Assembly (NCBI GenBank): GCA_963663995.1 | Contig: OY760660.1 | Span: 210,001 to 242,000 of the forward strand | DNA length: 32,000 bases | From: Erysipelotrichaceae bacterium | GTDB lineage: Bacteria > Bacillota_I > Bacilli_A > Erysipelotrichales > Erysipelotrichaceae | Reading direction: 5' to 3' | Shown here: one piece after another, positions 5,913 through 31,825 of the stretch | Layout: each line of letters starts with the position of its first letter | Position numbering within the stretch: the stretch's first letter is position 1 | Position numbers and translations under genes: made by a program | Notes under the pieces: generated by a model | Told to the model about the DNA's origin: nothing | The model's database searches: none | Seen by the model: only the letters and a program-made list of their open reading frames with translations

Positions 5913-7961
5913 ATGATTGAAATTAAAAATATAAATAAAACGTATAAACCTAAATCTAAAAACAAAGTAACCGCCATTAAGGGAGTTGATCTACAATTTT
6001 CACGTCATGGTTTAGTCTTTCTTTTAGGGAAATCAGGTTCAGGTAAATCAACTTTCTTAAATATTTTAGGTGGCTTAGATTCTGCAAATACATCTAGAAT
6101 CTATATCAATGAGAAAAAGCTTGATCGTTTTGATGAAACAACTTGTTCAAACTATCGTAATACCTATGTTGGTTTTGTCTTTCAAGAATATAATTTATTA
6201 AATGAATTAAATGTTTATAAAAATATTGAATTAGCCCTTCAAATGGTTGGCCAAATAGGCGATAATCATGAGAAAATCATGAATGTTCTTAAACGTGTTG
6301 GCTTAGAAGGTTTAGAAGATCGTGAACTTGATGAATTATCAGGTGGGCAAAAACAAAGAGTTGCGGTTGCGCGGGCTTTAGTTAAAGAACCAACGATCAT
6401 CTTAGCGGATGAACCAACTGGTAATTTGGACTCAGAAACGTCTGAACAAGTCTTTGACTTATTTAAAGAACTTTCAAAAGAGAGTTTAGTTATTGTGGTA
6501 ACACACGATTCTGAATATGCCCATAAATATGGAGATCGTATTATTGAAATCTCTGATGGAGAAATTGTTTCTGATAGTGCACCTGTAGCCGACGAAGATC
6601 ATTTAGATGTACCTGAGATGGTTAAGCCAAAACTTCCTTGGGAATTCATTTTTAAAATGAGTATTGGCAATGTTATGAACAATAAACTAAGAATGGTTGT
6701 GACTGCTGTTATTACCGCTTTCTTAGTAGCTATCTTATCTGCTGTTTATACAATGCTTTATGTTGGTGATCATGTGAATACTGATTTGATGACTTTATCA
6801 CATCAAGAACATGTTCTTCTCACGAAGTCACAGCCAAGTGGATTGTTCTTTAACTTCTCGTTTAATGGCGAAGACTTGAGTTCAAGTGATTATTTTATTG
6901 AAGAAGACAAAGTCATTGCCGCAACTGATTTAGCCAATCAGGCAAATGCAAGTCTCTATGATAAAACATATATCTTAAATAACGATATCCCTCTTTCGAT
7001 TGGTGATTTAGCCATTGGTGCGAATGCATTTCAAACTGATTTAGTCGATGAACCAAGTGCTTCAATGATTGAAACAATCAATCAAACTCCCTTAACATTT
7101 AGTGCTGTCAGTGAAGGATCAATTTTACTTAAAGATTTAGTCGGTGTTGTTCCAGAAAATGAAAATGAAGTTATTATTTCATCTTATTTAGCAGACTGGT
7201 TAATAAATTCTGGTTTGGCTGATAGTCGTCAAGCTTTGATAGATACAAATACTTCAATATCATTAGATGGTTTATCAGATTTAAAAGTTGTTGGCATAGT
7301 GACTTATGATACACCACTTTTAAGCAATGAATTAACAGCTTTATATACAGTTGGTAATACATTCTATGTAAACGAATCTTTCTTTGATCAAAATATTGTT
7401 AGTCAAACTGAACAATATGGTATCTATGTTGCTGAGGTTGAAGACTTAGCAAGCTTTACACAAAGCCTTAAAAACTTAGGAACAATGACGATTACACCTA
7501 ATTATGAAGAAAACTTAAATCGTTATACTCGCTATGACTTAACTTTAGTTATATCGGTTATTGTGCCTGTACTTGGTTATTTAGCGATTGTATTCTTAGG
7601 AAACTATATTTCATCTTCAATCTTATTTAGAAAGAAACAAATTGGGATCTTAAGAGCGATAGGAAATTATATCTCTAATGTTGAACACATCTTTAGATTA
7701 GAAGCAATTTTTGTTGGCTTAATTGTCATGAGCTTAGTTTACTTCTTGATTCCAATCTTTGTAGATATTGTAAACTTTGCCTTTATGGTTCACTTCCAAG
7801 ATACTTTTATATCTTTCTATCATTATCAAATTTATCATGTTGGACTCAGTTCAATCATTGAGATATTCTTGCTTCTTTCTCTAATGATTACCGTTCTAAC
7901 CTTTACCTTGACCCACAATATCAATTTAATTGATCCTGTGGATGTTATTAGCGGGCGTTAG
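5913..7961 (+). CDS. MacB-type ABC transporter with fused ATP-binding and FtsX-like permease domains and a ~260-aa extracytoplasmic domain
   Basis: A paralogue of the preceding gene: Walker A GKSGSGKST, signature SGGQKQR, Walker B ILADEPT, H-loop VTHD. TM1 is followed by a ~260-aa loop with MacB_PCD-like motifs (EVIISSYLADWL, LKVVGIV) and then RKKQIGILRAIG plus 3 TM segments. A GGAG RBS is present. Confidence 0.85.
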   Translation: MIEIKNINKTYKPKSKNKVTAIKGVDLQFSRHGLVFLLGKSGSGKSTFLNILGGLDSANTSRIYINEKKLDRFDETTCSNYRNTYVGFVFQEYNLLNELNVYKNIELALQMVGQIGDNHEKIMNVLKRVGLEGLEDRELDELSGGQKQRVAVARALVKEPTIILADEPTGNLDSETSEQVFDLFKELSKESLVIVVTHDSEYAHKYGDRIIEISDGEIVSDSAPVADEDHLDVPEMVKPKLPWEFIFKMSIGNVMNNKLRMVVTAVITAFLVAILSAVYTMLYVGDHVNTDLMTLSHQEHVLLTKSQPSGLFFNFSFNGEDLSSSDYFIEEDKVIAATDLANQANASLYDKTYILNNDIPLSIGDLAIGANAFQTDLVDEPSASMIETINQTPLTFSAVSEGSILLKDLVGVVPENENEVIISSYLADWLINSGLADSRQALIDTNTSISLDGLSDLKVVGIVTYDTPLLSNELTALYTVGNTFYVNESFFDQNIVSQTEQYGIYVAEVEDLASFTQSLKNLGTMTITPNYEENLNRYTRYDLTLVISVIVPVLGYLAIVFLGNYISSSILFRKKQIGILRAIGNYISNVEHIFRLEAIFVGLIVMSLVYFLIPIFVDIVNFAFMVHFQDTFISFYHYQIYHVGLSSIIEIFLLLSLMITVLTFTLTHNINLIDPVDVISGR

Positions 7962-7974
7962 CGATGTTAGCGAT
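7957..7974. repeat. Perfect 2 x 9-bp tandem repeat (GTTAGCGAT GTTAGCGAT) spanning the ABC gene stop and the anmK start
   Basis: Read directly from the sequence. Copy 1 (7957-7965) contains the TAG stop (7959-7961). The ATG of anmK (7964-7966) straddles the junction between the copies. A related GATGTTATTAGCG lies at 7941-7953. Confidence 0.9.
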
Positions 7975-9082
7975 TGGTTTGATGTCAGGCACTTCACTTG
8001 ATGGAGTGGACACTGTTCTATGTGAAATAAATGGTATTGATGAAAATACACAGGTGACACAAATCGATTTTTTAACGCTTCCATTTCAAAAAGACTTAAA
8101 AGATAAACTACTCCGTTTATTATCTAATCATCAAACAAATACCAGAGCTTTAAGTAGTCTTAACTTTGAGCTAGGGTATTTTTTTGCACAAGCAGTGAAA
8201 GAAATTCTGAAAAACAACAAGTTAGAAAGTTCAGATGTTTCCTTTATCGCATCACATGGTCAAACGATCTATCATTTACCACATCCTGATGAAGGTGAAT
8301 TTGCATCAACTTTACAATTAGGTGAAGCTGCTGTGATTGCTTATGAATCTAAAATTCAAGTGATATCTAATTTTAGAGTGATGGATATGGCAGCTGGTGG
8401 TCAAGGAGCACCACTCGTTCCTTTTAGTGAACAAATACTTTATGGGCAAACACAACAAAGAACAGTTTGTTTAAATTTAGGGGGTATCGCTAATATCACC
8501 GTATTAGATGATGATTTAATCGCTTTTGATACTGGTCCTGCTAATATGATGATAGATGAAGCTATGCGTATTTTCTTCAATAAAGATTATGATGAAAATG
8601 GAGAAACAGCCGCAAAAGGTCAGATAAATCTTGACTTATTAAATAAATTAAAAGCCCATCCCTATCTATCGATTGCATATCCAAAAAGTACTGGAAGAGA
8701 AATGTTTGGTGCGCAGTATGTGCAGGCATTATTAAATGACTTTACTTTGCTTAAAGCAGAAGATATTATTCGTACCTTTACTTACTTTACAGCGTATTCT
8801 GTAAGTGTTGCGCTAAAGGCTGTCGGTGGTAAGATTGATCGATTAATTGTAGCTGGTGGGGGTGCATATAATCCAATGATTTTAGCTGATTTAAGAAATC
8901 TCTGTGAAGTTGAACTTGTTTGTACACAAGAAGATTGTGGTTATTCATCTGCTTCAAAAGAAGCAATTGCCTTTGTGATTTGTGGAAATCAAAGCTTACA
9001 TCACAAAGCATCAAATGTTCCAAGTGCAACAGGTGCACAAAGAAAGGTTATTTTAGGTAGTATCACAACGATTCCATATTAG
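7964..9082 (+). CDS. anmK: Anhydro-N-acetylmuramic acid kinase
   Basis: MLAIGLMSGTSLDGVD.. is the canonical AnmK N-terminus. The protein is 372 aa with an ASKHA-fold GGGAYN motif near the C-terminus. It starts 2 nt after the upstream stop codon. Confidence 0.88.
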   Translation: MLAIGLMSGTSLDGVDTVLCEINGIDENTQVTQIDFLTLPFQKDLKDKLLRLLSNHQTNTRALSSLNFELGYFFAQAVKEILKNNKLESSDVSFIASHGQTIYHLPHPDEGEFASTLQLGEAAVIAYESKIQVISNFRVMDMAAGGQGAPLVPFSEQILYGQTQQRTVCLNLGGIANITVLDDDLIAFDTGPANMMIDEAMRIFFNKDYDENGETAAKGQINLDLLNKLKAHPYLSIAYPKSTGREMFGAQYVQALLNDFTLLKAEDIIRTFTYFTAYSVSVALKAVGGKIDRLIVAGGGAYNPMILADLRNLCEVELVCTQEDCGYSSASKEAIAFVICGNQSLHHKASNVPSATGAQRKVILGSITTIPY

Positions 9083-9096
9083 AATCGTTGTTTTTT
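9066..9096 (+). terminator. Rho-independent terminator after anmK
   Basis: A 9-bp stem, CAACGATTC (9066-9074) with GAATCGTTG (9082-9090), around a 7-nt loop that contains the TAG stop, followed by TTTTTT. Confidence 0.85.
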
Positions 9097-9103
9097 ATGT
9101 TTG

Positions 9104-9125
9104 TGTATCACAAAAGTGATACAAT
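9104..9125 (+). promoter_or_regulatory. Perfect 8-4-8 palindrome overlapping an extended -10-like element upstream of the FtsX/ATPase/PASTA operon
   Basis: TGTATCAC-AAAA-GTGATACA spans 9104-9123. Its right arm forms TGaTACAAT (9117-9125), which matches the extended -10 pattern TGnTAnAAT. The ATG is at 9160. Confidence 0.35.
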
Positions 9126-9159
9126 TATTGTACGCTTAATTAGTGTAATGGGGAGGCAT

Positions 9160-10566
9160 ATGAATTTTATACATCGAGCATTCTTGAGTATGACACGACG
9201 TTTAGACAAAAGTTTATTGTTGTTTTTAATCGTGTTTATATTAAGTAATGTCATGGCGGGATCAATTGCGATTTCGCAAGCATCAGAAAATGTTGAACAA
9301 ACAATGAAACAACAGTTGGGAGCTAAAGCAACCGTTGAAATTGATTATGAAAAAATCCAAGACTGGACTGAAGAACAATGGCAAGACTTAATCTGGGTTA
9401 GCCCAGAAATGGTTGAAGATATTGGAGCTTTAAGTCAAGTTAAGTATTATGACTATAATATTGAAAATTGGTTAATGGGTAATGATTTAAAAGAATATAA
9501 TCCAAACAATGGTTATGTCCAAGATTATGAAGCTTATTTTAATGTTAAAGGGGTTCATTTCCCTGAAGTACTTGATATTGTGACGGGTGAAGCTGATTTA
9601 GTGGATGGACGAGTTTTTACAGAAGCAGAAATTGCGAATGGTGATCATTTCGCATTAATCTCTGATAAGTTTGCGGAAGTCAATAACTTACATCTAGGGG
9701 ATTTAATGGTCATGTCTCAAAGTTTTTGGAATCAAGATAATGAAGAAATTAGACAAGATTTCATGTTTGAAGTTATTGGTATCTATGCACCTAATGTTGA
9801 TTTAGAAAACAATGATGATAACAATCGTTGGATTGATTACACTGTTTTTAATCGTATCTATACCACTAATGGTGCGGTCCAAGAAGTCAATGATTGGCAA
9901 AATGCGATGTATGCTGAGCTCTATCCTGACATGATGATTAATAATACAGTTTATATTGCACCTGTCTTTGTTTTGAATGATCCAGAAGCTGTTGAGAGTT
10001 TTAAAGTCGATGCCTTAGCGTATCTACCTGAATATTATCGCGTGCGTGCAGATGCTGATGCCTATGAATCAGTGGCTGGCCCTATTAACTTCATTGGTTC
10101 TTTATCAAATATGATTTTATGGGTTGCGATCTTTGCGACAATCTTAATTTTAAGTTTAGTGGTTGTCTTATTCTTACGTGATCGTAAGCATGAGTTTGGT
10201 ATTTACTTGTCTTTAGGTGAAGCGAAATGGAAAGTACTCTCACAAATCGTCACTGAAGTCTTTATCGTTGCTTTCTTAGGCATTACTTTATCAATGTTTT
10301 CAGGAACCATGATTGCTGATCTAACATCCCAAAGCATGATTGATATGGGTGTCGGTATGGAAAATCCTGATGATGGATGGATTGAACCTTATAATTATGG
10401 TTATGGAAATATCTCACAAGATGATGTTATTGCGGCATACGATGTTGAGTTTAATCTTGAGTATGTTCTAGTCCTTTATGGTGTTGGTTTATCAACCGTA
10501 CTTGTATCAACGATCGCACCAATGCTTTATCTTCTTCGACTTAAACCAAAGAAGATCTTAATGTAG
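9160..10566 (+). CDS. FtsX/MacB-type ABC transporter permease with a large extracytoplasmic domain
   Basis: MNFIHRAFLSMTRRLDKSLLLFLIVFIL is a typical N-terminus with TM1. It is followed by a ~270-aa loop with MacB_PCD-like motifs (FALISDKFAEVNNLHLGD, FEVIGIY), then RDRKHEFGIYLSLGE and 3 TM segments. I place the start at the ATG at 9160, which follows GGGGAGG. The 5' extension in the ORF track (9088) runs through the terminator. Confidence 0.85.
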   Translation: MNFIHRAFLSMTRRLDKSLLLFLIVFILSNVMAGSIAISQASENVEQTMKQQLGAKATVEIDYEKIQDWTEEQWQDLIWVSPEMVEDIGALSQVKYYDYNIENWLMGNDLKEYNPNNGYVQDYEAYFNVKGVHFPEVLDIVTGEADLVDGRVFTEAEIANGDHFALISDKFAEVNNLHLGDLMVMSQSFWNQDNEEIRQDFMFEVIGIYAPNVDLENNDDNNRWIDYTVFNRIYTTNGAVQEVNDWQNAMYAELYPDMMINNTVYIAPVFVLNDPEAVESFKVDALAYLPEYYRVRADADAYESVAGPINFIGSLSNMILWVAIFATILILSLVVVLFLRDRKHEFGIYLSLGEAKWKVLSQIVTEVFIVAFLGITLSMFSGTMIADLTSQSMIDMGVGMENPDDGWIEPYNYGYGNISQDDVIAAYDVEFNLEYVLVLYGVGLSTVLVSTIAPMLYLLRLKPKKILM

Positions 10567-10578
10567 GGGGAGAAAAAC

Positions 10579-11253
10579 ATGTCAATTTTAAATATCCAAA
10601 AATTAAACTATCACTATCAAGATGGTGAAAATATTCGAACAATTTTAAAAGATGTAGATGTTGAATTTGAAAAAGGAAAATTCTATACCATTTTAGGTCA
10701 ATCTGGTTCAGGTAAAACGACATTATTATCTTTATTATCAGCACTAGATACACCAAAATCTGGGAAAATTCTTTTTAATGATCAAGATATTGAAACGATA
10801 GGTCACGAACATTATCGTCGTAATGCGATTGCGATTATATTCCAAAGTTATAACTTAGTGCCATATATGAGTGCTTTAGAAAATGTTATGGTTCCAATGT
10901 CTATTACTGAAAACGAAATTCCAAAAGATCGTAAAACGGTTGCTTATCACTTATTGGATTACATTGGAATCACAAAAACAAAAGCTGACCGAATTGTTAA
11001 TAAATTATCCGGTGGTGAACAACAAAGGGTTGCGATTGCGCGTGCTTTAGCATCGAATGTTGATGTCATTCTTGCGGATGAACCAACTGGTAATTTAGAT
11101 GAATCCTTAGAAGATGAAATCATTGAAATCTTTAAGAATTTAGCACATACCCACAATAAATGCATCATTATGGTTACCCATAACAAACATATTGCTGATG
11201 AATCAGATGTATCTTACTTACTGCATAAAGGAGTTTTAAGTATCAATGAGTGA
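10579..11253 (+). CDS. ABC transporter ATP-binding protein (MacB/LolD-like), partner of the upstream permease
   Basis: Walker A GQSGSGKTT, signature LSGGEQQR, Walker B ILADEPT, H-loop VTHN. A GGGGGAG RBS is present. Confidence 0.9.
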   Translation: MSILNIQKLNYHYQDGENIRTILKDVDVEFEKGKFYTILGQSGSGKTTLLSLLSALDTPKSGKILFNDQDIETIGHEHYRRNAIAIIFQSYNLVPYMSALENVMVPMSITENEIPKDRKTVAYHLLDYIGITKTKADRIVNKLSGGEQQRVAIARALASNVDVILADEPTGNLDESLEDEIIEIFKNLAHTHNKCIIMVTHNKHIADESDVSYLLHKGVLSINE

Positions 11254-12595
11254 TTTTTTAAATAAGTTTACCGATGAGAACTATAAAGAGACCATCGATC
11301 AAAAAGGTGAACGTCCTAAAAAGAAGAAAACTTCAAAAAATGTTGAAAGGGAAACAGTTAGCCCACAAAGACATGAATTTGTTGAGGAAAGTTTCAAAGA
11401 TCCAAACTATAAAAGTCAACAACGAACAAAATGGATATTAATTATTGTTTCTGGATTTATTCTTGTTGCATTAAGTGTCTTTGGTTATTTCTGGATGAAT
11501 CGAGTTAAGGTGATTGATTTTGTAAATCAACCTTTGAATGAGCTACAAACCTGGGCCGCACGTAATGATTTAATACTGACCATTGATGAAGTCTATTCAC
11601 TTGAGGTTAATGACAATATTGTTGTTGAAATGCTTCCAGTTGCTGGCAGTACAATCTCAAAAGGGGATGTCATTAATGTTGTAGTTTCAATGGGAGCTGA
11701 TCCTGAAGAAATTCTGGTTGTCCCTGATTTTACTGCTTCTAGTTATATGGATGTGCAAATGTGGATAGATGAAGTTAGAGCTAACAATATGAGAATATCC
11801 TATGAGTATTCTGAAACAATTGGTGCGGACACATTTATCCGTATTAACTTCAGTGATACTAATACGACAAATAGTTCTTATCAACGTAAAGATTACGCTG
11901 TTGTCTATATTTCTCGTGGACCTCAAGTTTATGAAAAAAATATTGAAGTACCAAATTGGGTGAGTGATAAAGCTAGTCTTGCGACTGCACAAGCATGGGC
12001 AAGCTCTAAAGAAGTTGATTTAGTTATTAATTATGTTTATTCAGCTTTAGCGAATGACACAATTGTATCTCAATCAGTTCCTGCCAAAGAAATGGTCTCG
12101 AAAAATGATTCAATTACGATATCAGTTTCAAAAGGTTTATCAGTCAATGTGCCTGACTTTAAAGATAAAAACATGACTGATGCTGCCTCGATGATTGCTG
12201 AATTAAATCTACTTGAAAACGTCAGTGTTGATTTGATTGAAATGTACAATAACACCAATGCTTATGGGTCATATATTTGGCAAGATAAAGATGCAGGTGT
12301 TCGCATTGATGCATCGATTACTAAACCCTTTGAAATGAGAGTTTATTATTCATTAGGTAAACCATTTATTGAAACAAAAGTGGGTTCACTCGAATCCGTA
12401 TTGACTTCTTATTTCTATAACCTAAATCTAAATTCTGCTGAATTAACTTATTCAGTTGCTTATAAAAACTGTACATCAGTTACAGATCCTGTTAAAGGTC
12501 AAATCTGTTATCAATCAAAATACAATGAGTATGTAAATACAGGCACGCATATTGATTTGATTGTTCATGATCCAAATAGTAGTACAACTTACTAA
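11246..12595 (+). CDS. Single-pass membrane protein with about five extracellular PASTA-like repeats and no kinase or transpeptidase domain
   Basis: A ~60-aa Lys-rich cytoplasmic N-terminus is followed by a TM segment (WILIIVSGFILVALSVFGYFWM). Repeats of about 65 aa then follow, with the PASTA pattern (V-[PI]DF-x..L..A/W....L........xxVxxQxPxAGxxxxKGDxIxxxVSxG). Examples are KVIDFVNQPL..VAGSTISKGDVINVVVSMG and VPNWVSDKASL..SKNDSITISVSKG. The start overlaps the ATPase stop by 8 nt. Confidence 0.7.
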   Translation: MSDFLNKFTDENYKETIDQKGERPKKKKTSKNVERETVSPQRHEFVEESFKDPNYKSQQRTKWILIIVSGFILVALSVFGYFWMNRVKVIDFVNQPLNELQTWAARNDLILTIDEVYSLEVNDNIVVEMLPVAGSTISKGDVINVVVSMGADPEEILVVPDFTASSYMDVQMWIDEVRANNMRISYEYSETIGADTFIRINFSDTNTTNSSYQRKDYAVVYISRGPQVYEKNIEVPNWVSDKASLATAQAWASSKEVDLVINYVYSALANDTIVSQSVPAKEMVSKNDSITISVSKGLSVNVPDFKDKNMTDAASMIAELNLLENVSVDLIEMYNNTNAYGSYIWQDKDAGVRIDASITKPFEMRVYYSLGKPFIETKVGSLESVLTSYFYNLNLNSAELTYSVAYKNCTSVTDPVKGQICYQSKYNEYVNTGTHIDLIVHDPNSSTTY

Positions 12596-15434: not shown

Positions 15435-16271
15435 ATGGACAAACAACATAAAACAATCTTTTTAGACATTGATGGAACCTTAGTTGGAAATAAGGGGGCT
15501 GTGCCAAAATCAGCCGAAGAAGCGATAAAAAAAGTCAAGGCTAATGGACATAAAGTGATTCTTTGTACGGGTCGTACATTAGATGAAATCTATCCGCCCA
15601 TCATGGCAATTGGCTTTGATGGCGTAATTGCATGTGGAGGCAATTATGTTATCGCAAAAGATGAAATTCTTTATGAACGATATATTACGTTAGATGATCT
15701 ACAACACCTTTATGAATATTTTGAGAAATATGGAATTAATTACTATGTTGAGGCAATTTCTGGCATTTATGCATCACCAAATTGTGATCAACAATTAATC
15801 GATTTAGCGAATGAAGTAGCGAAAGTTCAAGGTGAACATTTCTTAGAACACTTTAACCTCTTCAGAGGGGTAATGAAGCAAAATGAGAAACTACTAAGAA
15901 ATGATGTGACAAAGATTTCTTTCTTAGGTTCAAATCATCCAATTGATGACTTAAAAAAGGAATATCAAGATCGTTTTGAGATCTTTGATTTAGTTGTCCC
16001 AATGTTTGGAGAAAACAGCGGTGAAATTTCTATTAAAGGAACTGACAAAACAGTCGGAATGGATATTATGATTCATCACTTTGATCTAATTGAAGAGAAT
16101 TCAATTGCGATAGGTGATGGTAATAATGATATTACCATGCTTAAAAAAGCAGCCATTGGTGTCGCGATGGGAAACGCAACAGACAAGCTAAAAGCAGTGG
16201 CTGATATGATTAGCGATGATGTCGATGATGATGGATTAGCAAAAGCGTTAAAAAGATTAGAATTATTCTAA
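15435..16271 (+). CDS. Cof-type HAD-IIB family phosphatase
   Basis: MDKQHKTIFLDIDGTL provides motif I, LCTGR motif II, and GDGNNDITML motif IV. The ORF-track start at 15369 covers the RBS of the divergent minus-strand gene and is rejected. Confidence 0.85.
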   Translation: MDKQHKTIFLDIDGTLVGNKGAVPKSAEEAIKKVKANGHKVILCTGRTLDEIYPPIMAIGFDGVIACGGNYVIAKDEILYERYITLDDLQHLYEYFEKYGINYYVEAISGIYASPNCDQQLIDLANEVAKVQGEHFLEHFNLFRGVMKQNEKLLRNDVTKISFLGSNHPIDDLKKEYQDRFEIFDLVVPMFGENSGEISIKGTDKTVGMDIMIHHFDLIEENSIAIGDGNNDITMLKKAAIGVAMGNATDKLKAVADMISDDVDDDGLAKALKRLELF

Positions 16272-16720
16272 TCTTTTTTAATGATTTCAATCGTTTCTAT
16301 AGCTTGATAACTTGCACAAACACAGATGCTTGTGTTTTTTAAATCAATGGAGGTAAAACAGATATCTGTTGGTATTTTCTCAGTTAAATGACTTGGTTTA
16401 TCGTCTAATTTAATCCAAGCCTCTAACTGACACCAAGCTTTTAAAGGCTGATCAGGATTTAGCTGTAAGCGATCAATTAAGTGTTTCGATATGGGTCTTG
16501 GGAATTCACAGTCGATTCCAATTGGAAAGCTTTCATAGGCGACCAATAAAATATTTTTTGTATGGGTAACAGAGATATATCCATGTTCAATTAAGGGTTT
16601 ACCAGTGTTTGAATAACTTACAGTTCCCCAGTGATTCTCAAGTGCTAAAGGAAGTAAAACAGTTTTAGAAGCATTCTGTTTATATTCTGTTTCTTTGTTT
16701 TCAAAGATAAATATTTGCAT
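16268..16720 (-). CDS. 4'-phosphopantetheinyl transferase superfamily protein (short Sfp-like)
   Basis: GKP..ISVTHT, IGIDCEF (Mg-binding D/E) and WCQLEAWIK (matching W-[SCT]-x-K-E-A-x-x-K) are present. The protein is only about 150 aa. I place the start at the ATG at 16720; the ORF track uses the TTG at 16726. Confidence 0.6.
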   Translation of the reverse strand: MQIFIFENKETEYKQNASKTVLLPLALENHWGTVSYSNTGKPLIEHGYISVTHTKNILLVAYESFPIGIDCEFPRPISKHLIDRLQLNPDQPLKAWCQLEAWIKLDDKPSHLTEKIPTDICFTSIDLKNTSICVCASYQAIETIEIIKKD

Positions 16721-16772
16721 ACTCAAACTCTAGCATAGAATTTGTCTGAGAAAGCGACATCTTTTATTTTTT

Positions 16773-17556: not shown

Positions 17557-17580
17557 AAACGTGCTTCAACACGTTTTTTT
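17557..17580 (+). terminator. Rho-independent terminator
   Basis: AAACGTG (17557-17563), a 6-nt loop, then CACGTTT (17570-17576), followed by a T-run to 17580. Confidence 0.85.
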
Positions 17581-17598: not shown

Positions 17599-18972
17599 AT
17601 GAAACAAAAGAATGGCTCATTTTTAATCGCTCTATTGGCAGCGAGATTATCTATATTTGGACTCAAAATACTTAAACGAAACGGGACCCATTATCCCGGT
17701 TATATTGCGTTGAAATTTTGTCCAGATTTTCTCTCTTATTTAGCACAACCTAAAAAGCTTATTGCGATTACTGGAACGAATGGTAAAACAACCACATCAA
17801 ATCTAATATTGGATGTCTATAAACAAACAGATTTGAAGATTGCTCATAACTCTTTAGGATCAAATATCCAAGAGGGTATTATCACTACATTGTTAAAAGG
17901 TTCAAACTTTTTTGGAAATAAAGCTAAAGCTGATTTATTCATATTAGAAGTGGATGAGCGGGTATCACCTAAAATATATCCTTATATCAAACCTGATTAT
18001 TTATGTATTACCAATCTATTTAGAGATAGTTATCGCAGAAATGCATCGGTTGAATTTATTGCTGATATCTTAGATCAATCGATTCCAAAAGAAACAAAAC
18101 TCATCGTTAATAGTGACGATGCGATTAGTTCATATCTTTGTCATGATAATGAACGTTTTGTCTTTAGTATGGAAGCACAAAAAGATGAATTTCAAATTAA
18201 AGATAGTTTAATTAAAGATCTCGTTTACTGTCCTAAATGTGATCATAAATTGACCTACACTTTTAACCGTTACCATCATATTGGTAAAGTCATATGTCCA
18301 GTGTGTAATTTTACGAATTTAAATCCAGATCTTTCAATTATCAAAATTGATGAAGAAGTCCATATAAAATATGGTGAGCGTGTCTATCTTTTCCCTAAAG
18401 TAGGTGAAAATATTACGGACTTCTATAATATGGTTGCTGCTATTGCAACATGTGTTTATAGTGGCTTAAGCATTGAAGAAGTACAAAAGTCATTCTCACA
18501 ATTAAAAGTTGTCCAAAGTCGCTTTAATATATCCAATTTAAAAGGCAAACAAATCATTGTGATGATGTCAAAGGATCAAAACCCAGTGGCAGCCAGTCGT
18601 GTTTTTGATTATATTCGTCGTCAAAATACACGTCAAACAGCCGTTATTTTTATCAATGAAAATTCAGACCATCATACGGGTAGTGAAAATAATGCGTGGT
18701 ACTACGATGCTGATTTTGAGTATTTAAATCAAACACACATTAAACAAGTGATTGTCGGTGGATGGCGTATTTTAGATGCGAAAGTTCGTTTGCTTTTAGC
18801 GGGTATTGATGAATCTTCAATTGTTTTAGCGCATGATGAAATCAGTACTCATAAGTTTGTTGATTTTACTAAAGTCGATGATGTTTATATTCTATATGGC
18901 ACCAAAACAGAACCAGAAGCTTTAAAAATAAAAGATTTATTACTTGATCGTATACAGAAGGAGATGGCTTAA
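17599..18972 (+). CDS. murT: MurT-like Mur ligase family protein (homologue of the lipid II isoglutaminyl synthase ligase subunit), divergent
   Basis: P-loop ITGTNGKTTTSN, EVDE, and a Cys4 ribbon (CPKCDH...CPVCNF) are present, along with a DUF1727-like C-terminus containing WYYDADFE. The triad Asp position reads Asn (SENNAW), and the RDQxDRxGE motif reads RDSYRRNAS. Confidence 0.8.
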   Translation: MKQKNGSFLIALLAARLSIFGLKILKRNGTHYPGYIALKFCPDFLSYLAQPKKLIAITGTNGKTTTSNLILDVYKQTDLKIAHNSLGSNIQEGIITTLLKGSNFFGNKAKADLFILEVDERVSPKIYPYIKPDYLCITNLFRDSYRRNASVEFIADILDQSIPKETKLIVNSDDAISSYLCHDNERFVFSMEAQKDEFQIKDSLIKDLVYCPKCDHKLTYTFNRYHHIGKVICPVCNFTNLNPDLSIIKIDEEVHIKYGERVYLFPKVGENITDFYNMVAAIATCVYSGLSIEEVQKSFSQLKVVQSRFNISNLKGKQIIVMMSKDQNPVAASRVFDYIRRQNTRQTAVIFINENSDHHTGSENNAWYYDADFEYLNQTHIKQVIVGGWRILDAKVRLLLAGIDESSIVLAHDEISTHKFVDFTKVDDVYILYGTKTEPEALKIKDLLLDRIQKEMA

Positions 18973-19685
18973 TGAAAATAGAAGTTCTATACGGTAATGC
19001 GGCTAATCTATATGGCGATCAAGGGAATATTTTACTCTTAAAAAAAGCCTTAGCTGACGCAACATTTATCGAGACTGATTTAAATGAAACTCCTCGTTTT
19101 GTAAGTACAAAAGTTGATTTGATAATCATGGGATCAATGAGTGAGAGAATGCAGATGAAAGTGATTGAGCGTTTATTGCCTTTTAGAGATCGAATCATTA
19201 ACTTAATTGATGAGGGTGTACACTTTGTGATCACTGGTAATGCTTTAGATATTTTTGGTGAAGCCATCGAAAAAGAAGATGGGTCCTTTGTCACAGGTTT
19301 AAATATTTTTTCTTTTAAAACGAAAGAAGATTTAATGCATCGTCATAATTCGTTAGTTTTAGGCTTATATAAAAATATGGAAATTGTTGGCTTTAAAACT
19401 CAGTTTGCACAAATTTATCCTAGTACAAAACTACCTCATTTCCTAGATATTGAAAGAGGCACTGGATATCATGTTGGGGCAAAGTTTGAAGGGATTCACC
19501 GTAATCGTTTTTATGGGACTAATTGTGTGGGACCATTTCTTGTCTTAAACCCTTTCTTTACCCTCAACTTATTTAAAGAATTAGGGATTAATTATCCACA
19601 ACTTCCTTATGAAACAGCCTTGATTGCTGCTTATCATAAACGTATCTCTGAATTTAGAGATCCTAAAATCATTAATCACCCTTAG
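18972..19685 (+). CDS. gatD: GatD-like CobQ/GATase_3 family protein, apparently lacking the catalytic Cys and His (pseudo-glutaminase)
   Basis: The N-terminal LYGDQGN motif and the overall layout match GatD, and the start overlaps the murT-like stop (TAATG). The nucleophile elbow reads VITGNA instead of ..CGG.. and the His position reads NCVGP instead of ..HGP.. The protein has only one Cys in total. Confidence 0.75.
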   Translation: MKIEVLYGNAANLYGDQGNILLLKKALADATFIETDLNETPRFVSTKVDLIIMGSMSERMQMKVIERLLPFRDRIINLIDEGVHFVITGNALDIFGEAIEKEDGSFVTGLNIFSFKTKEDLMHRHNSLVLGLYKNMEIVGFKTQFAQIYPSTKLPHFLDIERGTGYHVGAKFEGIHRNRFYGTNCVGPFLVLNPFFTLNLFKELGINYPQLPYETALIAAYHKRISEFRDPKIINHP

Positions 19686-19708
19686 AGCAGATTCCTTCTG
19701 CTTTTTTT
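19686..19708 (+). terminator. Rho-independent terminator
   Basis: AGCAGA (19686-19691), a 5-nt loop, then TCTGCT (19697-19702), followed by TTTTTT. Confidence 0.75.
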
Positions 19709-20966: not shown

Positions 20967-20991
20967 TCCTTGCCTATGCAGGACTTTTTTT
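20965..20991 (+). terminator. Rho-independent terminator
   Basis: AGTCCT (20965-20970) pairs with AGGACT (20980-20985), followed by TTTTTTT. The stop codon lies in the 5' arm. Confidence 0.7.
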
Positions 20992-21026
20992 ATGTGGATA
21001 AGGGAAGTGAAATTAAAAAAATAATG

Positions 21027-21032
21027 TATAAT
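21027..21032 (+). promoter_or_regulatory. -10 box positioned for a leaderless DUF1287 transcript
   Basis: TATAAT (21027-21032) is preceded by TG, and the ATG at 21039 lies 6 nt downstream with no SD. The surrounding ATGTATAATAA is identical to the sequence at 15420-15430. Confidence 0.3.
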
Positions 21033-21038
21033 AAACGC

Positions 21039-21725
21039 ATGGTTTATGTTAAACGTAGAAGACGCATACGATGGATTCCACTTAGCCTGTTTATTCTTGT
21101 GATTTCAAGTATCAGTTTCTTTCTTTTAAAGCCTTATTTATTTGCGATGCAAGTCGAAGAAATTGAACAGGTTGAAGAGGTCATTGATGTTGGTCCTGAT
21201 TTAAATGGCAATGGAATTTCTGATATAGATGATATTGTGATAGGTGCTCGAAAAGATGCGCTGAATTTACCTGAATATATCAATTGGTACTATGCTGGTG
21301 GATATCCACCTGAAAATGAAGGGACTTGTACTGACCTTGTCTGGCGAGCTTTTATGGAAGCTGGTATTGTATTAAAAGATTTGGTAGATGCTGATATTGA
21401 GGCTAATACATCAGCTTATCCCTTTGCATCTGAACCCGATCCAAACATTGATTTTAGAAGAGTGAGAAATTTATTTTACTTCTTTCAAAGAAATGGATTA
21501 GAATTAACAACGGATGTGTATAAAACAGATCAATGGCAAGCAGGTGATATTGTTGTCTTTGGAAATTTTGAACACATCGGAATCCTCTCTGATATACGAA
21601 ATGAGAATGATATTCCTTATCTCATTCATAATAACGATCAACCGATTAGAGAAGAAGATCGTTTAGAGTATGGATCATATACGCAAGGCATTACTGGCCA
21701 TTTCAGATGGATACCAGAAGAATAA
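21039..21725 (+). CDS. DUF1287 domain-containing membrane-anchored protein
   Basis: An N-terminal signal anchor (MVYVKRRRRIRWIPLSLFILVISSISFFLL) is followed by DUF1287-like motifs (GISDIDDIVIGAR, GTCTDLVWRAF, NIDFRRVRNL, GDIVVF..HIGI, ITGHFRW). The ORF-track start at 20970 runs through the upstream terminator. The ATG at 21024 is an alternative start. Confidence 0.75.
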   Translation: MVYVKRRRRIRWIPLSLFILVISSISFFLLKPYLFAMQVEEIEQVEEVIDVGPDLNGNGISDIDDIVIGARKDALNLPEYINWYYAGGYPPENEGTCTDLVWRAFMEAGIVLKDLVDADIEANTSAYPFASEPDPNIDFRRVRNLFYFFQRNGLELTTDVYKTDQWQAGDIVVFGNFEHIGILSDIRNENDIPYLIHNNDQPIREEDRLEYGSYTQGITGHFRWIPEE

Positions 21726-21734: not shown

Positions 21735-22883
21735 ATGTTAGATCGCGTTAACCCAGTCGTCAAAAATATTAAATTAAGTGGCATTCGTCGCTTCAATCAA
21801 GCTGCTAAGAAAATTGAAGGAGCTGTATCTTTAACTGTTGGAGAACCAGAATTTGATACAGTTCAAGCGATAAAGGATGCAGCAAATTTAGCCCTTCAAA
21901 ATAATCGTACTCATTATCCTGTGGGTTTAGGTGTACAAGAGTTAAGAGAAGCTATTTCTGAATTTGAAAGTAAAGATCCAAAATCTGTTTATTCAAGTGA
22001 TGAAGTGATTGTGACGGTTGGTTCAACTGAAGCACTAGCTGCTGTTCTTTTTTCAATCTTAGAAGCAGGCGATGAAGTTATCATTCCTGAACCGATGTAT
22101 TTAGTTTATCAACCACTGATTGAAAGAGTTGGCGCAAAAGTTGTTGGTTTAGATACCACTCAAGATGAATTTCAAATTACACGTGAAAAATTAGAAGCTT
22201 GTGTTAGTGAAAAAACAAAAGCGATTTTAATCACTTCACCTAATAATCCAACCGGTGTTATATACAATCAAGCAAGTTTAGATCTAGTTGTTGAATATGC
22301 TTTGAAAACTAAAGCATTCTTAATTAGTGATGATGTTTATAATCAACTCGTTTATGTGGATCATTTACCAAGTCTTAGAGACTACCCACAAATTCGTGAA
22401 CAACTCATTATTACGCAATCCTATTCAAAACCCTATGCAATGACAGGTTGGCGTATTGGTTATATTTTGGCTGATCAACCAATCGCGAAAGTCATTGGTT
22501 CTTTCCATCCTTATATGGTTAGTGGAATTGCTACATTTATTCAAGATGCGGCTATTACGGCTTTAAAACAAGATACAACTTGGATGCGTGATTTATATCA
22601 TGCACGTCGTGATAAATCTTTAGAAATCTTAGCGAATAATCAAATAAAAGTGGTTAAACCAGAAGGTGCGTTCTACTTCTTTGTTGATATCAAGGAATTT
22701 GGATTAAAATCAGAAGCATTCTGTGAAAAAGCTCTTTATGACTATAAAGTTGCAATGGTTCCAGGCGTTTACTTTGGTGAACATTGCGATCATTATATTC
22801 GCTTATCCTATGCGACAAGTGAAGATCAACTCTATGAAGGTCTTAACCGCTTAGCTGCCTTTGTTTCTGATTTAAGAAAATGA
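21735..22883 (+). CDS. Pyridoxal-phosphate-dependent aminotransferase, class I/II (aspartate/aromatic aminotransferase-like)
   Basis: GEPEFDT, SPNNPTG and SYSKPYAMTGWRIGY (PLP lysine) are present. A GGAG RBS is present. Confidence 0.85.
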   Translation: MLDRVNPVVKNIKLSGIRRFNQAAKKIEGAVSLTVGEPEFDTVQAIKDAANLALQNNRTHYPVGLGVQELREAISEFESKDPKSVYSSDEVIVTVGSTEALAAVLFSILEAGDEVIIPEPMYLVYQPLIERVGAKVVGLDTTQDEFQITREKLEACVSEKTKAILITSPNNPTGVIYNQASLDLVVEYALKTKAFLISDDVYNQLVYVDHLPSLRDYPQIREQLIITQSYSKPYAMTGWRIGYILADQPIAKVIGSFHPYMVSGIATFIQDAAITALKQDTTWMRDLYHARRDKSLEILANNQIKVVKPEGAFYFFVDIKEFGLKSEAFCEKALYDYKVAMVPGVYFGEHCDHYIRLSYATSEDQLYEGLNRLAAFVSDLRK

Positions 22884-23359
22884 AAAACGTTTTAAAAACG
22901 ATTCTCTTTACTTTCCATCTACAAATATTTATCAACCTTATCTTCTTTTTGATGATTCAATTTGGATTTAGGGTTTTTAGCTTTCATGAACAAGCTATGA
23001 TCAATACTGTTTTATATGCGTTTAGTCTAATGTTTATTTATTTTATTGTGATCTTGGTGATTTCTTTTTTTCGTCCAAAGGTTCTATCTTACCCTTATAA
23101 AGCCTGGGTCCTTCTCATCCTTCTTTTAGGGATTTATACTCTTAGTTTTATTTTGAGCCAAAGTGATTTTAGTTTATGGAAAATTTATTTTATAAGTCAT
23201 TTGCCAGTTGCTTATTTTGTAAGATCATGGCTTCCATCTCAATTTGATTTATCCCAACAGTTCTTAATTGGCTTATGTGCTATCAGTCCTGCCTTAGGTG
23301 TAAAGTTTGCCTATGAATTTAGTGGATGGTTAAAATATCGCATTAAAAAATCACGATAA
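22880..23359 (+). CDS. Hypothetical integral membrane protein (4-5 TM segments)
   Basis: A 159-aa strongly hydrophobic ORF whose start overlaps the aminotransferase stop (ATGA). I recognise no family. Confidence 0.55.
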   Translation: MKNVLKTILFTFHLQIFINLIFFLMIQFGFRVFSFHEQAMINTVLYAFSLMFIYFIVILVISFFRPKVLSYPYKAWVLLILLLGIYTLSFILSQSDFSLWKIYFISHLPVAYFVRSWLPSQFDLSQQFLIGLCAISPALGVKFAYEFSGWLKYRIKKSR

Positions 23360-29143: not shown

Positions 29144-29169
29144 CTAAAATAAAAATGGAGGACGTGCAC

Positions 29170-30300
29170 ATGAATGATATGAACGGTAAGTTATTAAAAG
29201 AGGGCTATACCTTTGATGATTTACTCTTAGTCCCAAGCTACTCTAGCGTGGTCCCTAAGGATGTTTGTTTAAAAACACAGTTAAGTGAAAAACTTCAACT
29301 CAAAATTCCGATTACTTCCGCTGCCATGGATACAGTAACCGAAGAAAAAATGGCGATCGCTTTAGCGAAAGCAGGTGGTTTAAGTTTTATTCATAAAAAT
29401 CTAAGTGTTGAACAACAAGCCAATATGGTTAAAAACGTTAAAGCGATTAAAGGGGATGATCAAGCGGCTGTTGATGCGAATGGTTATTTACTTTGTGGGG
29501 CTGCGGTCAGTGTTAATGCTTATAGTATGGAACGTGTTAAAGCACTTGTAGATGCTGGAGTTGATGTCATTACAGTTGATTCAGCTCATGGTCATTCAAA
29601 AGGTGTTATTGATACCATTAAACAAATTCATGCATCTTATCCAGAACTTGATATCGTTGGTGGAAATATTGTTACAGCTGATGCTGCAAAAGCTTTAGTT
29701 GAAGCTGGTGCAACCATTATTAAAGTAGGTGTTGGTCCTGGTTCTATTTGTACAACTCGAGTTGTTTCAGGGGTTGGTGTACCACAATTAACAGCGGTTA
29801 ATGATGTTTATGAATATGCGAAAAATCATAATGTTGCGGTCATTGCAGATGGTGGAATTAAACTATCTGGTGATATCGTGAAAGCGATCGCAGCAGGGGC
29901 TGATGCGGTTATGTTAGGTGGACTTTTGGCAGGTACAGAAGAAACACCTGGCGATATTATTGAAGTCTATGGTAAAAAAGTAAAAACCTATATGGGTATG
30001 GGATCACTTACCGCCATGCAAAAAGGAAGTTCAGACAGATATTTCCAAGGTGGTGAAAAAGATCTTAAAAAATTAGTACCAGAAGGCATTGAAGCAACTG
30101 TTGCTTATAAAGGTCCAATGGCAGATGTAGTCTATCAAATGATGGGTGGCTTACGATCAGGGATGGGTTATTGTGGTTGTGCTGATATTGCTCATTTAAA
30201 AACGGATGCTAAATTTGTGAAAATCACCAATGCTGGTTTAGCTGAATCACATCCACATGATGTTCAAAATATCCAGGAGGCTCCAAACTACCGTGGCTGA
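29170..30300 (+). CDS. guaB: IMP dehydrogenase, short form lacking the CBS/Bateman subdomain
   Basis: [36 protein letters not shown] and the C-terminal [16 protein letters not shown] are IMPDH hallmarks. The protein is only about 376 aa. The sequence goes from ..MVKNVK directly to [22 protein letters not shown], where about 115 aa of CBS pair normally sit. The start is the ATG 8 nt after GGAGG. Confidence 0.9.
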
Positions 30301-31825
30301 TACAATTTTAGTTTTAGACTTCGGTTCTCAGTATAACCAACTGATTGCACGAAGAATTCGTGAAATGGGAGTGTTCTCAGAATTGCTTCCTAACGATGTT
30401 GATCTTAAAAAAGTAATTACACCTGATGTTAAAGGGATTGTTTTTTCTGGCGGTCCAAATTCTGTTTATGATGAAGGAGCACTTTCAGTTGATCCTGCTA
30501 TTTACGATCTAGGTTTACCAATCTTAGGCATTTGTTATGGAATGCAATTGATGATGCATCAATTAGAGGGTGGGAAAGTTGAACCAGGAAAACTTAGAGA
30601 ATATGGTCCAGCCGATATTCATTTATTAAATGAAACCCATTTAAGTCATACCATGCCTTTAACGCAAAAAGTATGGATGAGCCATGGCGATCATGTTGCC
30701 TCTATTGCTGAAGGTTTTAAAATTGATGCGAAAAGCAATCATGATGTGATTGCGGTTATTTCAAATGAAGATAAAAAATTCTATGGTTTACAATTCCATC
30801 CAGAAGTAAGAAATAGTGAATATGGAAATCAATGGTTATCAAACTTTGTCTTTGATGTATGTAAAGCCGAAGCTAACTGGAAACTTGAAGATTTCATTGA
30901 TCAACAAGTTCAAGAAATTAGAAATACAGTTGGTACAGATCAAGTGCTTTGTGCCCTATCAGGTGGTGTTGATTCATCTGTTGTCGCAGCATTACTACAT
31001 AAAGCAATTGGCCCACAATTAACCTGTATGTTTGTTGATCATGGCTTATTACGTTTAAATGAGCGTCAAATGGTTCGTGATATGTTTGAAGGCCATTTCG
31101 GTCTAAACTTAGTGGTTGTTGATGCCGAAGAGCGTTTCTTAGGAAAACTTGCCGGTGTTGAAGATCCTGAGAAAAAACGTAAAATTATCGGGACAGAATT
31201 TATTCGTGTCTTTGAAGAAGAAAGTTCTAAGTTAACAACTGTTAAATGGTTAGCTCAAGGAACTTTATATACAGATGTTATCGAGTCTGGTACTAAAACA
31301 GCTCAAACGATTAAATCTCATCACAATGTCGGTGGTTTACCAAAAGATATTCAATTTAAATTGATTGAACCATTAAATAAACTCTTTAAAGATGAAGTAC
31401 GTGCTTTAGGATTACTTTTGGGACTAAGTGAAGCAATGGTTTATCGTCAGCCATTCCCAGGTCCAGGTCTTGCGATTCGTATTATCGGAGAAGTCACTAA
31501 AGATAAATGTGATTTAGTCCGTTATAGTGATGCGATTTTCCATGAAGAAATCGTTAATGCAGGACTTCAACGTGATATTTGGCAGTACTTTACCGTTTTA
31601 ACAAATATTAGATCTGTGGGTGTTATGGGTGATCAAAGAACCTATGATTATGCTTTAGGTCTAAGAGCTGTTTCCTCTATTGATGGAATGACAGCAGATT
31701 ATGCAAAGATACCTTATGAAGTTTTAGATAAAGTATCTAAACGTATAGTCAATGAAGTTAGAGGGATTAATCGTATTATCTACGATATTACTCCTAAACC
31801 ACCAGCCACCATTGAGTGGGAATAA
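30293..31825 (+). CDS. guaA: GMP synthase (glutamine-hydrolysing)
   Basis: [20 protein letters not shown], the GATase elbow ILGICYGMQ, the PP-loop SGGVDSS and the C-terminal PPATIEWE are present. I favour the GTG at 30293, with GGAGG at 30276-30280, giving about 510 aa and an 8-nt overlap with guaB. The ATG at 30257 in the ORF track would add 12 atypical residues. Confidence 0.9.

Follow-up and report, generated by a model that had tools for sequence, protein, structure and literature searches.

A MurT/GatD-type gene pair without the residues for glutamine hydrolysis in an Erysipelotrichaceae bacterium

Background

MurT and GatD make up the glutamine-hydrolysing lipid II isoglutaminyl synthase, the structure of which has been solved for Staphylococcus aureus (6GS2, 6H5E, 7Q8E and 5N9M), Streptococcus pneumoniae (6FQB) and Streptococcus pyogenes (9SQ9 and 9SQJ). 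In staphylococci, streptococci and mycobacteria, this essential enzyme is a drug target, and the way in which host receptors sense peptidoglycan fragments is influenced by D-Glu amidation. A gene pair of this type is present in a 32,000-nucleotide stretch of the genome of an Erysipelotrichaceae bacterium (contig OY760660.1, positions 210,001 to 242,000), which is called the window below and to which the coordinates refer. In an original prediction, made from the sequence alone, all three residues of the glutaminase triad (a Cys and a His of GatD and an Asp supplied in trans by MurT) were suggested to be replaced in this pair. What, then, could such a ligase use in place of nitrogen from glutamine, and why would a GatD-like partner be kept? 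From the comparisons described here, the pair represents a distinct subfamily of MurT/GatD-type pairs and is not a decaying gene.

Two overlapping genes for a MurT/GatD-type complex

The 32-kb window contains this one MurT/GatD-type pair only. It consists of two open reading frames (ORFs) on the forward strand, as are the features of the pair and its flanking hairpins located below: 17599-18972, encoding a MurT-type ligase of 457 amino acids (aa), and 18972-19685, encoding a GatD-fold protein of 237 aa. The two overlap in the sequence TAATG (18970-18974), where the stop codon TAA (18970-18972) shares one base with the start codon ATG (18972-18974). A ribosome-binding site of the GatD-like gene, AAGGAG, was read directly from the sequence within the 3' end of the MurT-like gene (18958-18963), 8 nt 5' of the start codon. 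The ORF coordinates, lengths and coupling agree with those originally given, and canonical MurT/GatD pairs likewise form two-gene operons of the same order with overlapping stop and start codons.

The top sequence and structure matches of both proteins are to canonical MurT and GatD. The MurT-like subunit was assigned to the Mur ligase family by Pfam, Protein Data Bank (PDB) sequence matches, an AlphaFold2 (AF2) model and structure matches. It has a Mur_ligase_M domain (PF08245, E-value = 1e-9) and a MurT_C domain (PF08353, formerly DUF1727, E-value = 4e-19), and its best sequence matches in the PDB are MurT of S. aureus, S. pyogenes and S. pneumoniae (E-value = 1e-43 to 5e-40). The structures closest to its AF2 model, which was built from the family alignment with a predicted local distance difference test score (pLDDT) of 89.2, are thirteen solved MurT chains (including 7q8e, 6h5e, 9sq9 and 6fqb), followed by pMurC (6VR7). 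The GatD-like subunit is a CobQ-type class I amidotransferase-like protein, and its best PDB sequence matches are GatD of the same three species (E-value = 4e-10 to 2e-7). Its AF2 model, also from the family alignment, has a pLDDT of 96.6 and gives GatD (6gs2_A) as the top Foldseek match, with a template-modelling score of 0.86 and an E-value of 4e-19, which indicates the class I amidotransferase fold. The protein also keeps three further features of canonical GatD: a long helical region at the C-terminus, the YD-x-DFE segment of the interface and the G-P of HGP.

Both proteins are, however, remote from the curated families, although the MurT and GatD equivalog models are their only strong matches in NCBIfam. 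The MurT-like protein scores 186 and 180 bits with the NCBIfam MurT equivalog models (cut-off 800), and the GatD-like protein 55.5 bits against 450 and 38.9 against 400 with those of GatD, so that no equivalog cut-off is reached. With Pfam GATase_3, the family of GatD and of the CobQ/CobB amidotransferase domains, the GatD-like protein scores 26.2 bits, just below the 27-bit cut-off. The CobQ/CobB domains differ from it in that they are fused to a dethiobiotin-synthetase-like ATPase and keep both Cys and His.

Replacement of the glutaminase residues in both subunits

The triad positions were located by phmmer against the solved MurT/GatD structures, by MAFFT and by hhalign (probability 99.7%), and none of these alignments places a Cys, His or Asp at them. 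The catalytic His of HGP (S. aureus His189, S. pneumoniae His206) is replaced by V186 in C185-V186-G187-P188 (19524-19535) according to all three methods, and the residue at this position in the family is Leu in 42%, Val in 26% and Ile in 24%. The trans-acting Asp of MurT (S. aureus Asp349, S. pneumoniae Asp355) corresponds, again by all three methods, to N364 in S362-E363-N364 (18682-18690). This position is Asn in 97% of the variant set and Asp in all canonical sequences sampled. E363 is invariant in the subfamily, and an acidic side chain thus survives beside the former Asp position. The changes of His to Val and of Asp to Asn had both been foreseen, and the codons cited for them (GTG, 19527-19529, for V186; AAT, 18688-18690, for N364) are correct.

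The former nucleophile elbow, I-C-G-G in canonical GatD, reads T88-G89-N90-A91 (19233-19244; alignments and AF2). The counterpart of S. aureus Cys94 is G89 by ungapped MAFFT alignment, by phmmer against S. aureus and by hhalign, but T88 by phmmer against S. pneumoniae and by the secondary structure of the AF2 model, in which strand 84-87 and helix 89-95 leave T88 as the sole coil residue and thus at the apex. The Cys-equivalent residue is ambiguous by this one position, T88 or G89, and there is a Cys in neither register. The Thr that the original prediction saw at the elbow (ACT, 19233-19235, which is T88) accordingly holds as to the absence of Cys and the apex of the model, whereas the ungapped and profile alignments put G89 opposite Cys94. 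The single Cys of the GatD-like protein, C185 (19524-19526), is as originally described and directly precedes the former His position. A Cys at position 185 is found in about 12% of the family, mostly in the clade of the window.

Alignment also revealed replacements beyond those listed originally. The oxyanion strand G-G-G-(S/Q)-D is replaced by G54-S-M-S-E58 (19131-19145), the three glycines having become G54-S55-M56 in the window protein and G-(S/P/A)-M in the family. In a comparison of 83 variant with 15 canonical GatDs, E147 and H149 (S. aureus numbering), which are 100% conserved in canonical GatDs as part of E147-N-H149, are K142 and Q144 of K142-T-Q144 (19395-19403). The glutamine-capturing R128 (role from PMC5871853), by contrast, is kept as R124. 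In the MurT-like protein, a loop with three extra residues stands in for the DNAAD motif just before S-E-N. The loop R142-D-S-Y-R-R-N-A-S150 (18022-18048) takes the place of RDQ(L/M)DR(F/Y)GE, the divergence of which had also been noticed. Its subfamily consensus is RDS-x-(K/R/M)-RNAH, with S144 100% conserved, and it has a low pLDDT in the AF2 model. The canonical loop lies at the GatD interface and the putative ammonia channel (PMC6085368). In addition, the adenine-contacting Asn of S. pneumoniae (N270) is Asp in 93% of the variants.

On this alignment evidence, the GatD-like subunit cannot be a Cys-His glutaminase. In S. aureus, GatD C94S/G and MurT D349N each abolish glutamine-dependent amidation (PMC6113224, PMC3266927), and for this reason the pair cannot work as the canonical enzyme does. 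The changed chemistry of nitrogen supply that had been proposed for it follows from the same mutants. The closest laboratory counterpart is S. aureus MurT/GatD_C94G (PMC3266927), in which GatD without its nucleophile Cys is still required by MurT and carries the very same substitution if G89 aligns with Cys94. It is, however, a single mutant made in the laboratory that works only at pH 8.5, whereas in the natural family the His, oxyanion strand, MurT Asp and interface loop have changed as well, and the residues that took their place are conserved.

A large subfamily in gut bacteria

A homology search with the GatD-like protein yielded 88 clusters, all with a T-(G/S)-N-A elbow and (V/L/I/T)-G-P in place of HGP. 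More than 120 close clusters were obtained with the MurT-like protein, all with RDS-x-(K/R)-RNA(H) and S-E-N-x-A-W. In an exhaustive profile search, at least 351 clusters (50% identity) were obtained from 1.84 billion representatives with a threshold of E ≤ 1e-30, and 1272 with E ≤ 1e-10. There was no Cys-His dyad among the best 147 of these clusters, and no intermediate with a partial dyad. A Cys near the elbow occurs in only three of the GatD-like sequences surveyed, never together with the His, and a fourth has His186 without the Cys. In a metagenome scan with the elbow pattern, at least 423 members were confirmed among the 600 stretches listed, and at least 80 further loci were found. A scan of a genome collection with the generic P-loop pattern of the MurT-like alignment gave, beside a random sample of canonical loci, at least three variant loci among the matches listed, from a Clostridia metagenome-assembled genome (MAG), Faecousia sp. 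and 'Acholeplasma sp. CAG:878'. There was no named type-B taxon among these listed matches.

These three loci have the variant state at all positions, and every canonical pair sampled keeps RDQxDRxGE, D..SW, GGG, CGG and HG(P/S). Because canonical pairs are canonical and variant loci variant throughout, the covariation of the substitutions across the two subunits, for which the original prediction had asked the homologues to be surveyed, is perfect at the sequence level in the sampled genome loci. Variant and canonical proteins are also reciprocally monophyletic in midpoint-rooted neighbour-joining trees of both subunits, with a median identity between the two groups of 26% for MurT and 23% for GatD.

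Conservation within the subfamily was determined from 287 distinct GatD-like sequences, which are only about 45% identical overall. The new residues are nevertheless well conserved: E58 in 95%, T88 in 90% (V, I or F in about 8%), N90 in 96%, A91 in 88%, K142 in 84% and Q144 in 82%, with G in 80% and S in 16% at position 89. Of the residues shared with canonical GatD, R124 is conserved in 93% and G187 and P188 in 99%. All of the relatives examined, about 290 for the GatD-like and more than 170 for the MurT-like protein, share and co-vary in these substitutions, which bears out the earlier view of a concerted loss in both subunits that is not a sequencing error.

There is thus practically no chance that the pair is a pseudogene or a sequencing or assembly artefact, an explanation for which nothing was found in favour and which the family-wide conservation refutes. 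Both ORFs are intact and have a ribosome-binding site and terminators, an identical copy is present on an independent ENA contig, the substitutions recur in hundreds of homologues, and the AF2 models are of high confidence.

It could be asked instead whether the new residues make up another hydrolase, in which T88, or Ser89 in the 16% of members that have it, attacks glutamine or another amide with K142, E58 or MurT-like E363 as the base. T88 is at the elbow apex in the AF2 model and is 90% conserved, E58, K142 and E363 are conserved as well, and a Thr-Lys-acid amidohydrolase chemistry is used by L-asparaginases. However, neither candidate nucleophile is invariant, since about 8% of members have V, I or F at position 88 and 80% have Gly at position 89, the oxyanion glycines are gone, and there is no His or equivalent base at the canonical position. 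As the C94S mutant of S. aureus is also inactive (PMC6113224), such an activity seems very improbable.

In every locus with enough upstream DNA, the MurT-like gene lies directly 5' of the GatD-like gene, and in four representatives the two are joined in one chain (MurT-like::GatD-like). Constant adjacency and natural fusions indicate, at the level of genes, that the two proteins co-evolve as a physical pair. The GatD-like protein is hence a pseudo-amidotransferase: its fold is kept, its catalytic residues are absent, it is under purifying selection and its coupling to a synthetase is obligate. A fusion is also seen on the canonical side, in Collinsella (L007, L019 and L029, 5983-8157; L-numbers designate related loci), where MurT and GatD form one ORF of 725 aa with Cys, His and Asp present.

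The taxonomic survey comprised mostly unnamed metagenomic sequences. Named carriers are Frisingicoccus caecimuris, Frisingicoccus sp., Coprococcus sp., Faecousia sp., Oscillospiraceae, Ruminococcaceae, Clostridia MAGs and 'Acholeplasma sp. CAG:878', and the subfamily was also recorded in Lachnospiraceae. All recognisable sample names among the loci denote gut-type metagenomes (human, marmot and shrew).

Neither the searchable literature, comprising 8 million full texts, nor NCBIfam release 20 yielded an account of this subfamily, and nothing relevant was found in the literature on a GatD family without Cys and His, bacterial MurT paralogues, a type-B bridge ligase or ATPgrasp_ST. MurT-like proteins of archaeal pseudomurein producers occur without GatD (PMC11915815), and the archaeal 'MurT-like' proteins without GatD in a 2025 pangenomic study belong to a clade different from the present subfamily. 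Bacterial MurT-like genes with no GatD in the fetched flank were observed in Coriobacteriia and a Lachnospiraceae MAG (L018:736-2100, L025:5986-7350 and L013:5869-7407). Their loops show a third divergent state (LYRDQVDRYxxW and MDGIxTDW; LFSDQVDRYGG). Gastranaerophilales MAGs (L005, L014 and L023) have a MurT with canonical motifs and no adjoining GatD.

In public annotations (JGI names), members of the subfamily are called 'lipid II isoglutaminyl synthase (glutamine-hydrolysing)' or 'hypothetical protein'. Since the four defining features (Cys, His, oxyanion strand and trans Asp) are missing and the curated score cut-offs are failed, the pair should not be filed as EC 6.3.5.13. As this large subfamily of gut Firmicutes cannot hydrolyse glutamine in the known way, predictions of cell-wall chemistry are at present wrong for many abundant gut anaerobes.

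The ligase machinery of the MurT-like subunit

The situation on the ligase side is different. The MurT-like protein has the MurT architecture, consisting of a Mur ligase middle domain, a Cys4 ribbon and the MurT C-terminal domain with no N-terminal Mur domain. As in the Mur ligase superfamily as a whole, a central ATPase domain with a P-loop and Mg-binding acids is followed by a C-terminal Rossmann-like domain. The P-loop (ITGTNGKTTTSN), G59-T-N-G-K63-T64-T65 (17773-17793), is kept and invariant in the subfamily. So is the Cys4 zinc-ribbon insertion formed by C211, C214, C233 and C236 (18229-18306). The acids that bind Mg2+ and ATP, E117-V-D119-E120 (17947-17958), correspond to E110, D112 and E113 of S. 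pneumoniae (roles from PMC6085368) and are kept as well. More generally, K63, T64, N89, E117, D119, E120, N139, R308, K325, N328 and P329 are conserved in both the variant and the canonical MurT sets; residue roles for MurT/GatD were taken from PMC6085368, PMC6113224, PMC5871853 and PMC3266927. N89 is the Asn of the acceptor carboxylate, and the hinge Arg, the K..NP ribose loop and the N-terminal G(R/K)N(A/G)T-x-PG segment are likewise retained. The P-loop, Cys4 ribbon, DUF1727-like C-terminus and single GatD-like Cys of the original prediction are thus all real.

Because the ATP, Mg and acceptor-carboxylate residues are all kept, the MurT-like subunit is probably an active ligase. The acyl-phosphate chemistry at the expense of ATP would be that of MurC-F and the archaeal pMur ligases, which add amino acids; those enzymes differ in having no amidotransferase-fold partner, and the bacterial Mur ligases also in having an N-terminal UDP-binding domain and no Zn ribbon.

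We put the probability that the pair is an active ligase with a glutaminase-dead partner, acting on a peptidoglycan precursor, at roughly three in four. It would then be an obligate MurT/GatD-type heterodimer that no longer hydrolyses glutamine. With its acceptor Asn, N-terminal segment, ribbon and MurT_C retained, the complex would phosphorylate the alpha-carboxyl of D-iso-Glu on the lipid-linked precursor, and the acyl-phosphate would be attacked by a nucleophile not made by glutamine hydrolysis. The GatD-like subunit would be a required, non-catalytic partner, the remodelled pocket and interface of which are under selection.

Neighbouring genes at other loci are consistent with a peptidoglycan role. 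In a Pfam census of 150 neighbours within three genes of the pair, taken from 53 dereplicated locus groups, there was no universally linked third gene. The most frequent family was the polysaccharide deacetylase Polysacc_deac_1 (six neighbours), followed by ATPgrasp_ST (four, plus one fusion and one dropped duplicate). A GH25-LysM muramidase adjoins the pair in L071 and VanY in L072, each at a single locus.

The pair might act on another target, namely, a different precursor carboxylate, a secondary wall polymer or a small molecule, or might be a non-catalytic regulatory or assembly complex. The scores far under the equivalog cut-offs (186 against 800 and 55.5 against 450 bits), the loss of DNAAD, a proposed stem-peptide contact (PMC6113224), and the Asp for the adenine-contacting Asn point in this direction, and degenerate paralogues do exist. 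In L107 (10720-12811), for example, a second MurT-like protein has the P-loop GTNGKEE and Ala for the Mg-binding Glu E117, and is, by its sequence, probably ATPase-dead. In L072 (10131-11953; also L080, L081 and L084) there is a second tandem variant pair, with a MurT-like protein truncated to 372 aa that has no zinc ribbon, a P-loop GTKGKT and a loop YSNYWDQKGS, followed by another GatD-like protein without Cys and His. For the pair studied here, however, all of this appears unlikely. N89, the G(R/K)N(A/G)T-x-PG segment, the Zn ribbon and MurT_C are kept, the intact ATP and Mg residues speak against a non-catalytic role, and those neighbours that are informative are related to peptidoglycan.

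Source of the nucleophile

Gut habitats are rich in ammonia, and the nucleophile that we tentatively prefer, at somewhat less than even chances, is free ammonia. The pair would then make D-isoglutamine as an NH3-dependent synthase, which would fit the ammonia-rich and anoxic conditions of the gut. We lean this way because of the S. aureus MurT/GatD_C94G complex, in which glutamine-dependent lipid II amidation is lost and NH3-dependent amidation is kept at pH 8.5, and S. aureus MurT alone is inactive (PMC3266927). By analogy, this complex may be taken as a direct precedent for the retention of a GatD without Cys. Ammonia-dependent amidation had been one of the possibilities raised originally; the C94G complex gives it a direct biochemical precedent, and its lead over an amino acid or amine is slight.

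A comparable situation exists outside the cell wall. Vertebrate carbamoyl-phosphate synthetase I (CPS1) is ammonia-dependent and carries an inactive amidotransferase domain; in the human enzyme (5DOT/5DOU), which Foldseek also returned with the GatD-like model, a Cys-less module of class I amidotransferase fold is kept. CPS1 differs, however, in its unrelated ATP-grasp synthetase partner, its single polypeptide and its other biology. If ammonia is indeed used, the subfamily would represent a natural switch from glutamine to ammonia in which the dead subunit has been retained.

Several observations weigh against ammonia or a mere scaffold. At pH 7.5, NH3 gave no activity with the S. aureus enzyme (PMC3266927). 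A mere scaffold would be expected to drift at its old active site, and the replacements are instead among the best-conserved residues (E58, 95%; N90, 96%; R124, 93%; T88, 90%; in the MurT-like protein, E363 invariant and S144 100%). The MurT loop has turned more basic, a change that use of ammonia leaves unaccounted for. In several genomes, two variant pairs stand next to each other, and a RimK-like ATP-grasp amino-acid ligase adjoins the pair in five locus groups and is fused to it in one. Lastly, the same organism keeps a normal glutamine-dependent GMP synthase.

Some of these features speak for an amino acid or amine as the nucleophile. In this case the MurT-like subunit would ligate Gly, L-Asp or a diamino acid to the alpha-carboxyl of D-iso-Glu, as the first step of a type-B bridge or of another substituent. 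The GatD-like subunit would be a scaffold or a binding site for the incoming amino acid, and a second ligase, either ATPgrasp_ST or another variant pair, would lengthen the substituent. This is nearly as probable as ammonia, though still less likely than not. The remodelled loop, with its three-residue insertion and conserved S-E-N, is the counterpart of the incoming-amino-acid loop of Mur ligases (DNPR; DNAAD-GRD in MurT; PMC6113224). The RDQxDRxGE loop, now a basic RDSY(K/R)RNAH, would suit the binding of a carboxylate, and R124, the equivalent of the glutamine-capturing R128 (PMC5871853), is at hand in the GatD-like protein.

The genomic neighbourhood adds to this. An ATPgrasp_ST ligase directly adjoins the pair in L004, L109, L124, L138 and L145, and in L142 (854-3217) it is fused (ATPgrasp_ST E-value = 7e-53) to the N-terminus of the MurT-like protein, giving a protein of 788 aa that is followed by the GatD-like gene. 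No ATPgrasp_ST was found beside the canonical pairs in about 25 canonical loci. These proteins are distant relatives of the RimK-like alpha-L-glutamate ligases, and a search of solved structures with the ATP-grasp neighbour gave chance hits only. Two intact-looking variant pairs, divergently transcribed, occur in L118 (6007-8087, minus strand, and 8716-10756), L119, L122, L143 and L151. However, ATPgrasp_ST is adjacent or fused in only six of the 53 locus groups and is absent from the window locus, some second copies have dead P-loops, and the ATP-grasp enzyme could serve an unrelated precursor modification.

The organism itself, an uncultured gut bacterium, is also suggestive, as it is Erysipelotrichaceae-like: the named entries closest to its GMP synthase are from 'Erysipelotrichaceae bacterium', at 72, 66 and 65% identity. 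In the cultured genera Erysipelothrix and Holdemania of this family, the walls are of the B1-delta type, with D-Glu-Gly-L-Lys and D-Glu-L-Asp-L-Lys as bridges, for which two successive carboxyl-activating ligations are needed (PMC4062643). The peptidoglycan gene list of Erysipelothrix rhusiopathiae contains no bridge ligase (PMC9637936), and the genome-reduced Bulleidia extructa keeps a MurT homologue (PMC12786226). On the other hand, the subfamily occurs widely among Lachnospiraceae and Oscillospiraceae and in many gut Clostridia MAGs, a spread far beyond that of the known type-B walls. To our knowledge, such walls have not been reported in Lachnospiraceae, Oscillospiraceae or gut Clostridia. 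The original suggestion of another nucleophile at the D-Glu alpha-carboxyl accordingly gains circumstantial support from ATPgrasp_ST, the duplicated pairs and the B1-delta walls of the family, and the wide distribution of the subfamily counts against it.

In its most specific form, which we regard as slightly less probable again, the variant MurT would be the long-missing ligase that starts a substituent or cross-bridge at the D-Glu alpha-carboxyl of lipid II, with Gly, L-Asp, a diamino acid or an amine as the first residue. It would have the dead GatD as its scaffold or substrate-binding subunit, and the next residue would come from ATPgrasp_ST or a second variant pair. Were this so, a gap of about fifty years, the enzyme that builds on the D-Glu alpha-carboxyl in type-B and related walls, would be filled, and genes would be assigned to type-B cross-bridge synthesis. 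Substitution of this carboxyl would then also be far more common in gut Clostridia and Erysipelotrichia than surveys of wall chemistry suggest.

A polyamine (cadaverine or putrescine) on D-Glu, as in Negativicutes, was considered and rejected: Spermine_synth accounts for only two of the 150 neighbours (one at L070), the remodelled MurT loop is basic and not acidic, and no literature ties MurT to polyamines. In L070 (5105-6789), from a relative of the window organism, genes for S-adenosylmethionine decarboxylase and spermidine synthase (speD/speE) lie directly 5' of a block of haloacid dehalogenase (HAD) hydrolase, MurT-like and GatD-like genes, and in L073 (14-3741) a potABCD-like transporter lies 4 kb upstream of the pair. 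Polyamine genes are not recurrent in the family as a whole.

Genes surrounding the pair in the window

Terminator-like hairpins with T-runs are present at 17557-17576, closing the upstream HAD-hydrolase gene, and at 19684-19704, directly 3' of the GatD-like stop codon. Seven terminator-like sites were counted in the 2.6-kb stretch around the pair, compared with 1.0 expected from shuffled sequences. Being bounded by such hairpins on both sides, the pair looks like a stand-alone bicistron with its own transcription unit. Upstream are proB, proA, a C26 peptidase gene and two HAD-hydrolase genes, and downstream are genes for a flavodiiron protein, a DUF1287 protein, an aminotransferase and YggS. 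This gene order is common to close relatives only.

The DUF1287 protein (20970-21725) has an N-terminal hydrophobic segment and no NCBIfam match, and in the clade of the window (L070, L074 and L076-L078) its gene sits 3' of the pair, after the flavodiiron gene. Two ORFs flanking the region, 16268-16726 (minus strand, 152 aa) and 22880-23359 (159 aa), have no Pfam match at E ≤ 0.01.

Farther upstream, at 4576-12595, genes of the ATP-binding cassette (ABC) transporter/FtsX/MacB type are interleaved with that of the anhydro-N-acetylmuramic acid kinase AnmK (7964-9082; PF03702, E-value = 5e-107). The run is followed by a gene for a 449-aa protein with a single PASTA domain (11246-12595). This region may be a cluster for the recycling or sensing of peptidoglycan.

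At 29155-31825, the IMPDH-like and GMP-synthase genes overlap by 44 nt when translated as the longest ORFs. Neither of these translations has an exact entry in the protein collection, whereas eight other window proteins that were looked up do have one. Most GuaA homologues are 510 aa long, compared with 522 aa for the longest ORF of the window, and the true start of GuaA is therefore probably downstream of 30257, as judged from these lengths.

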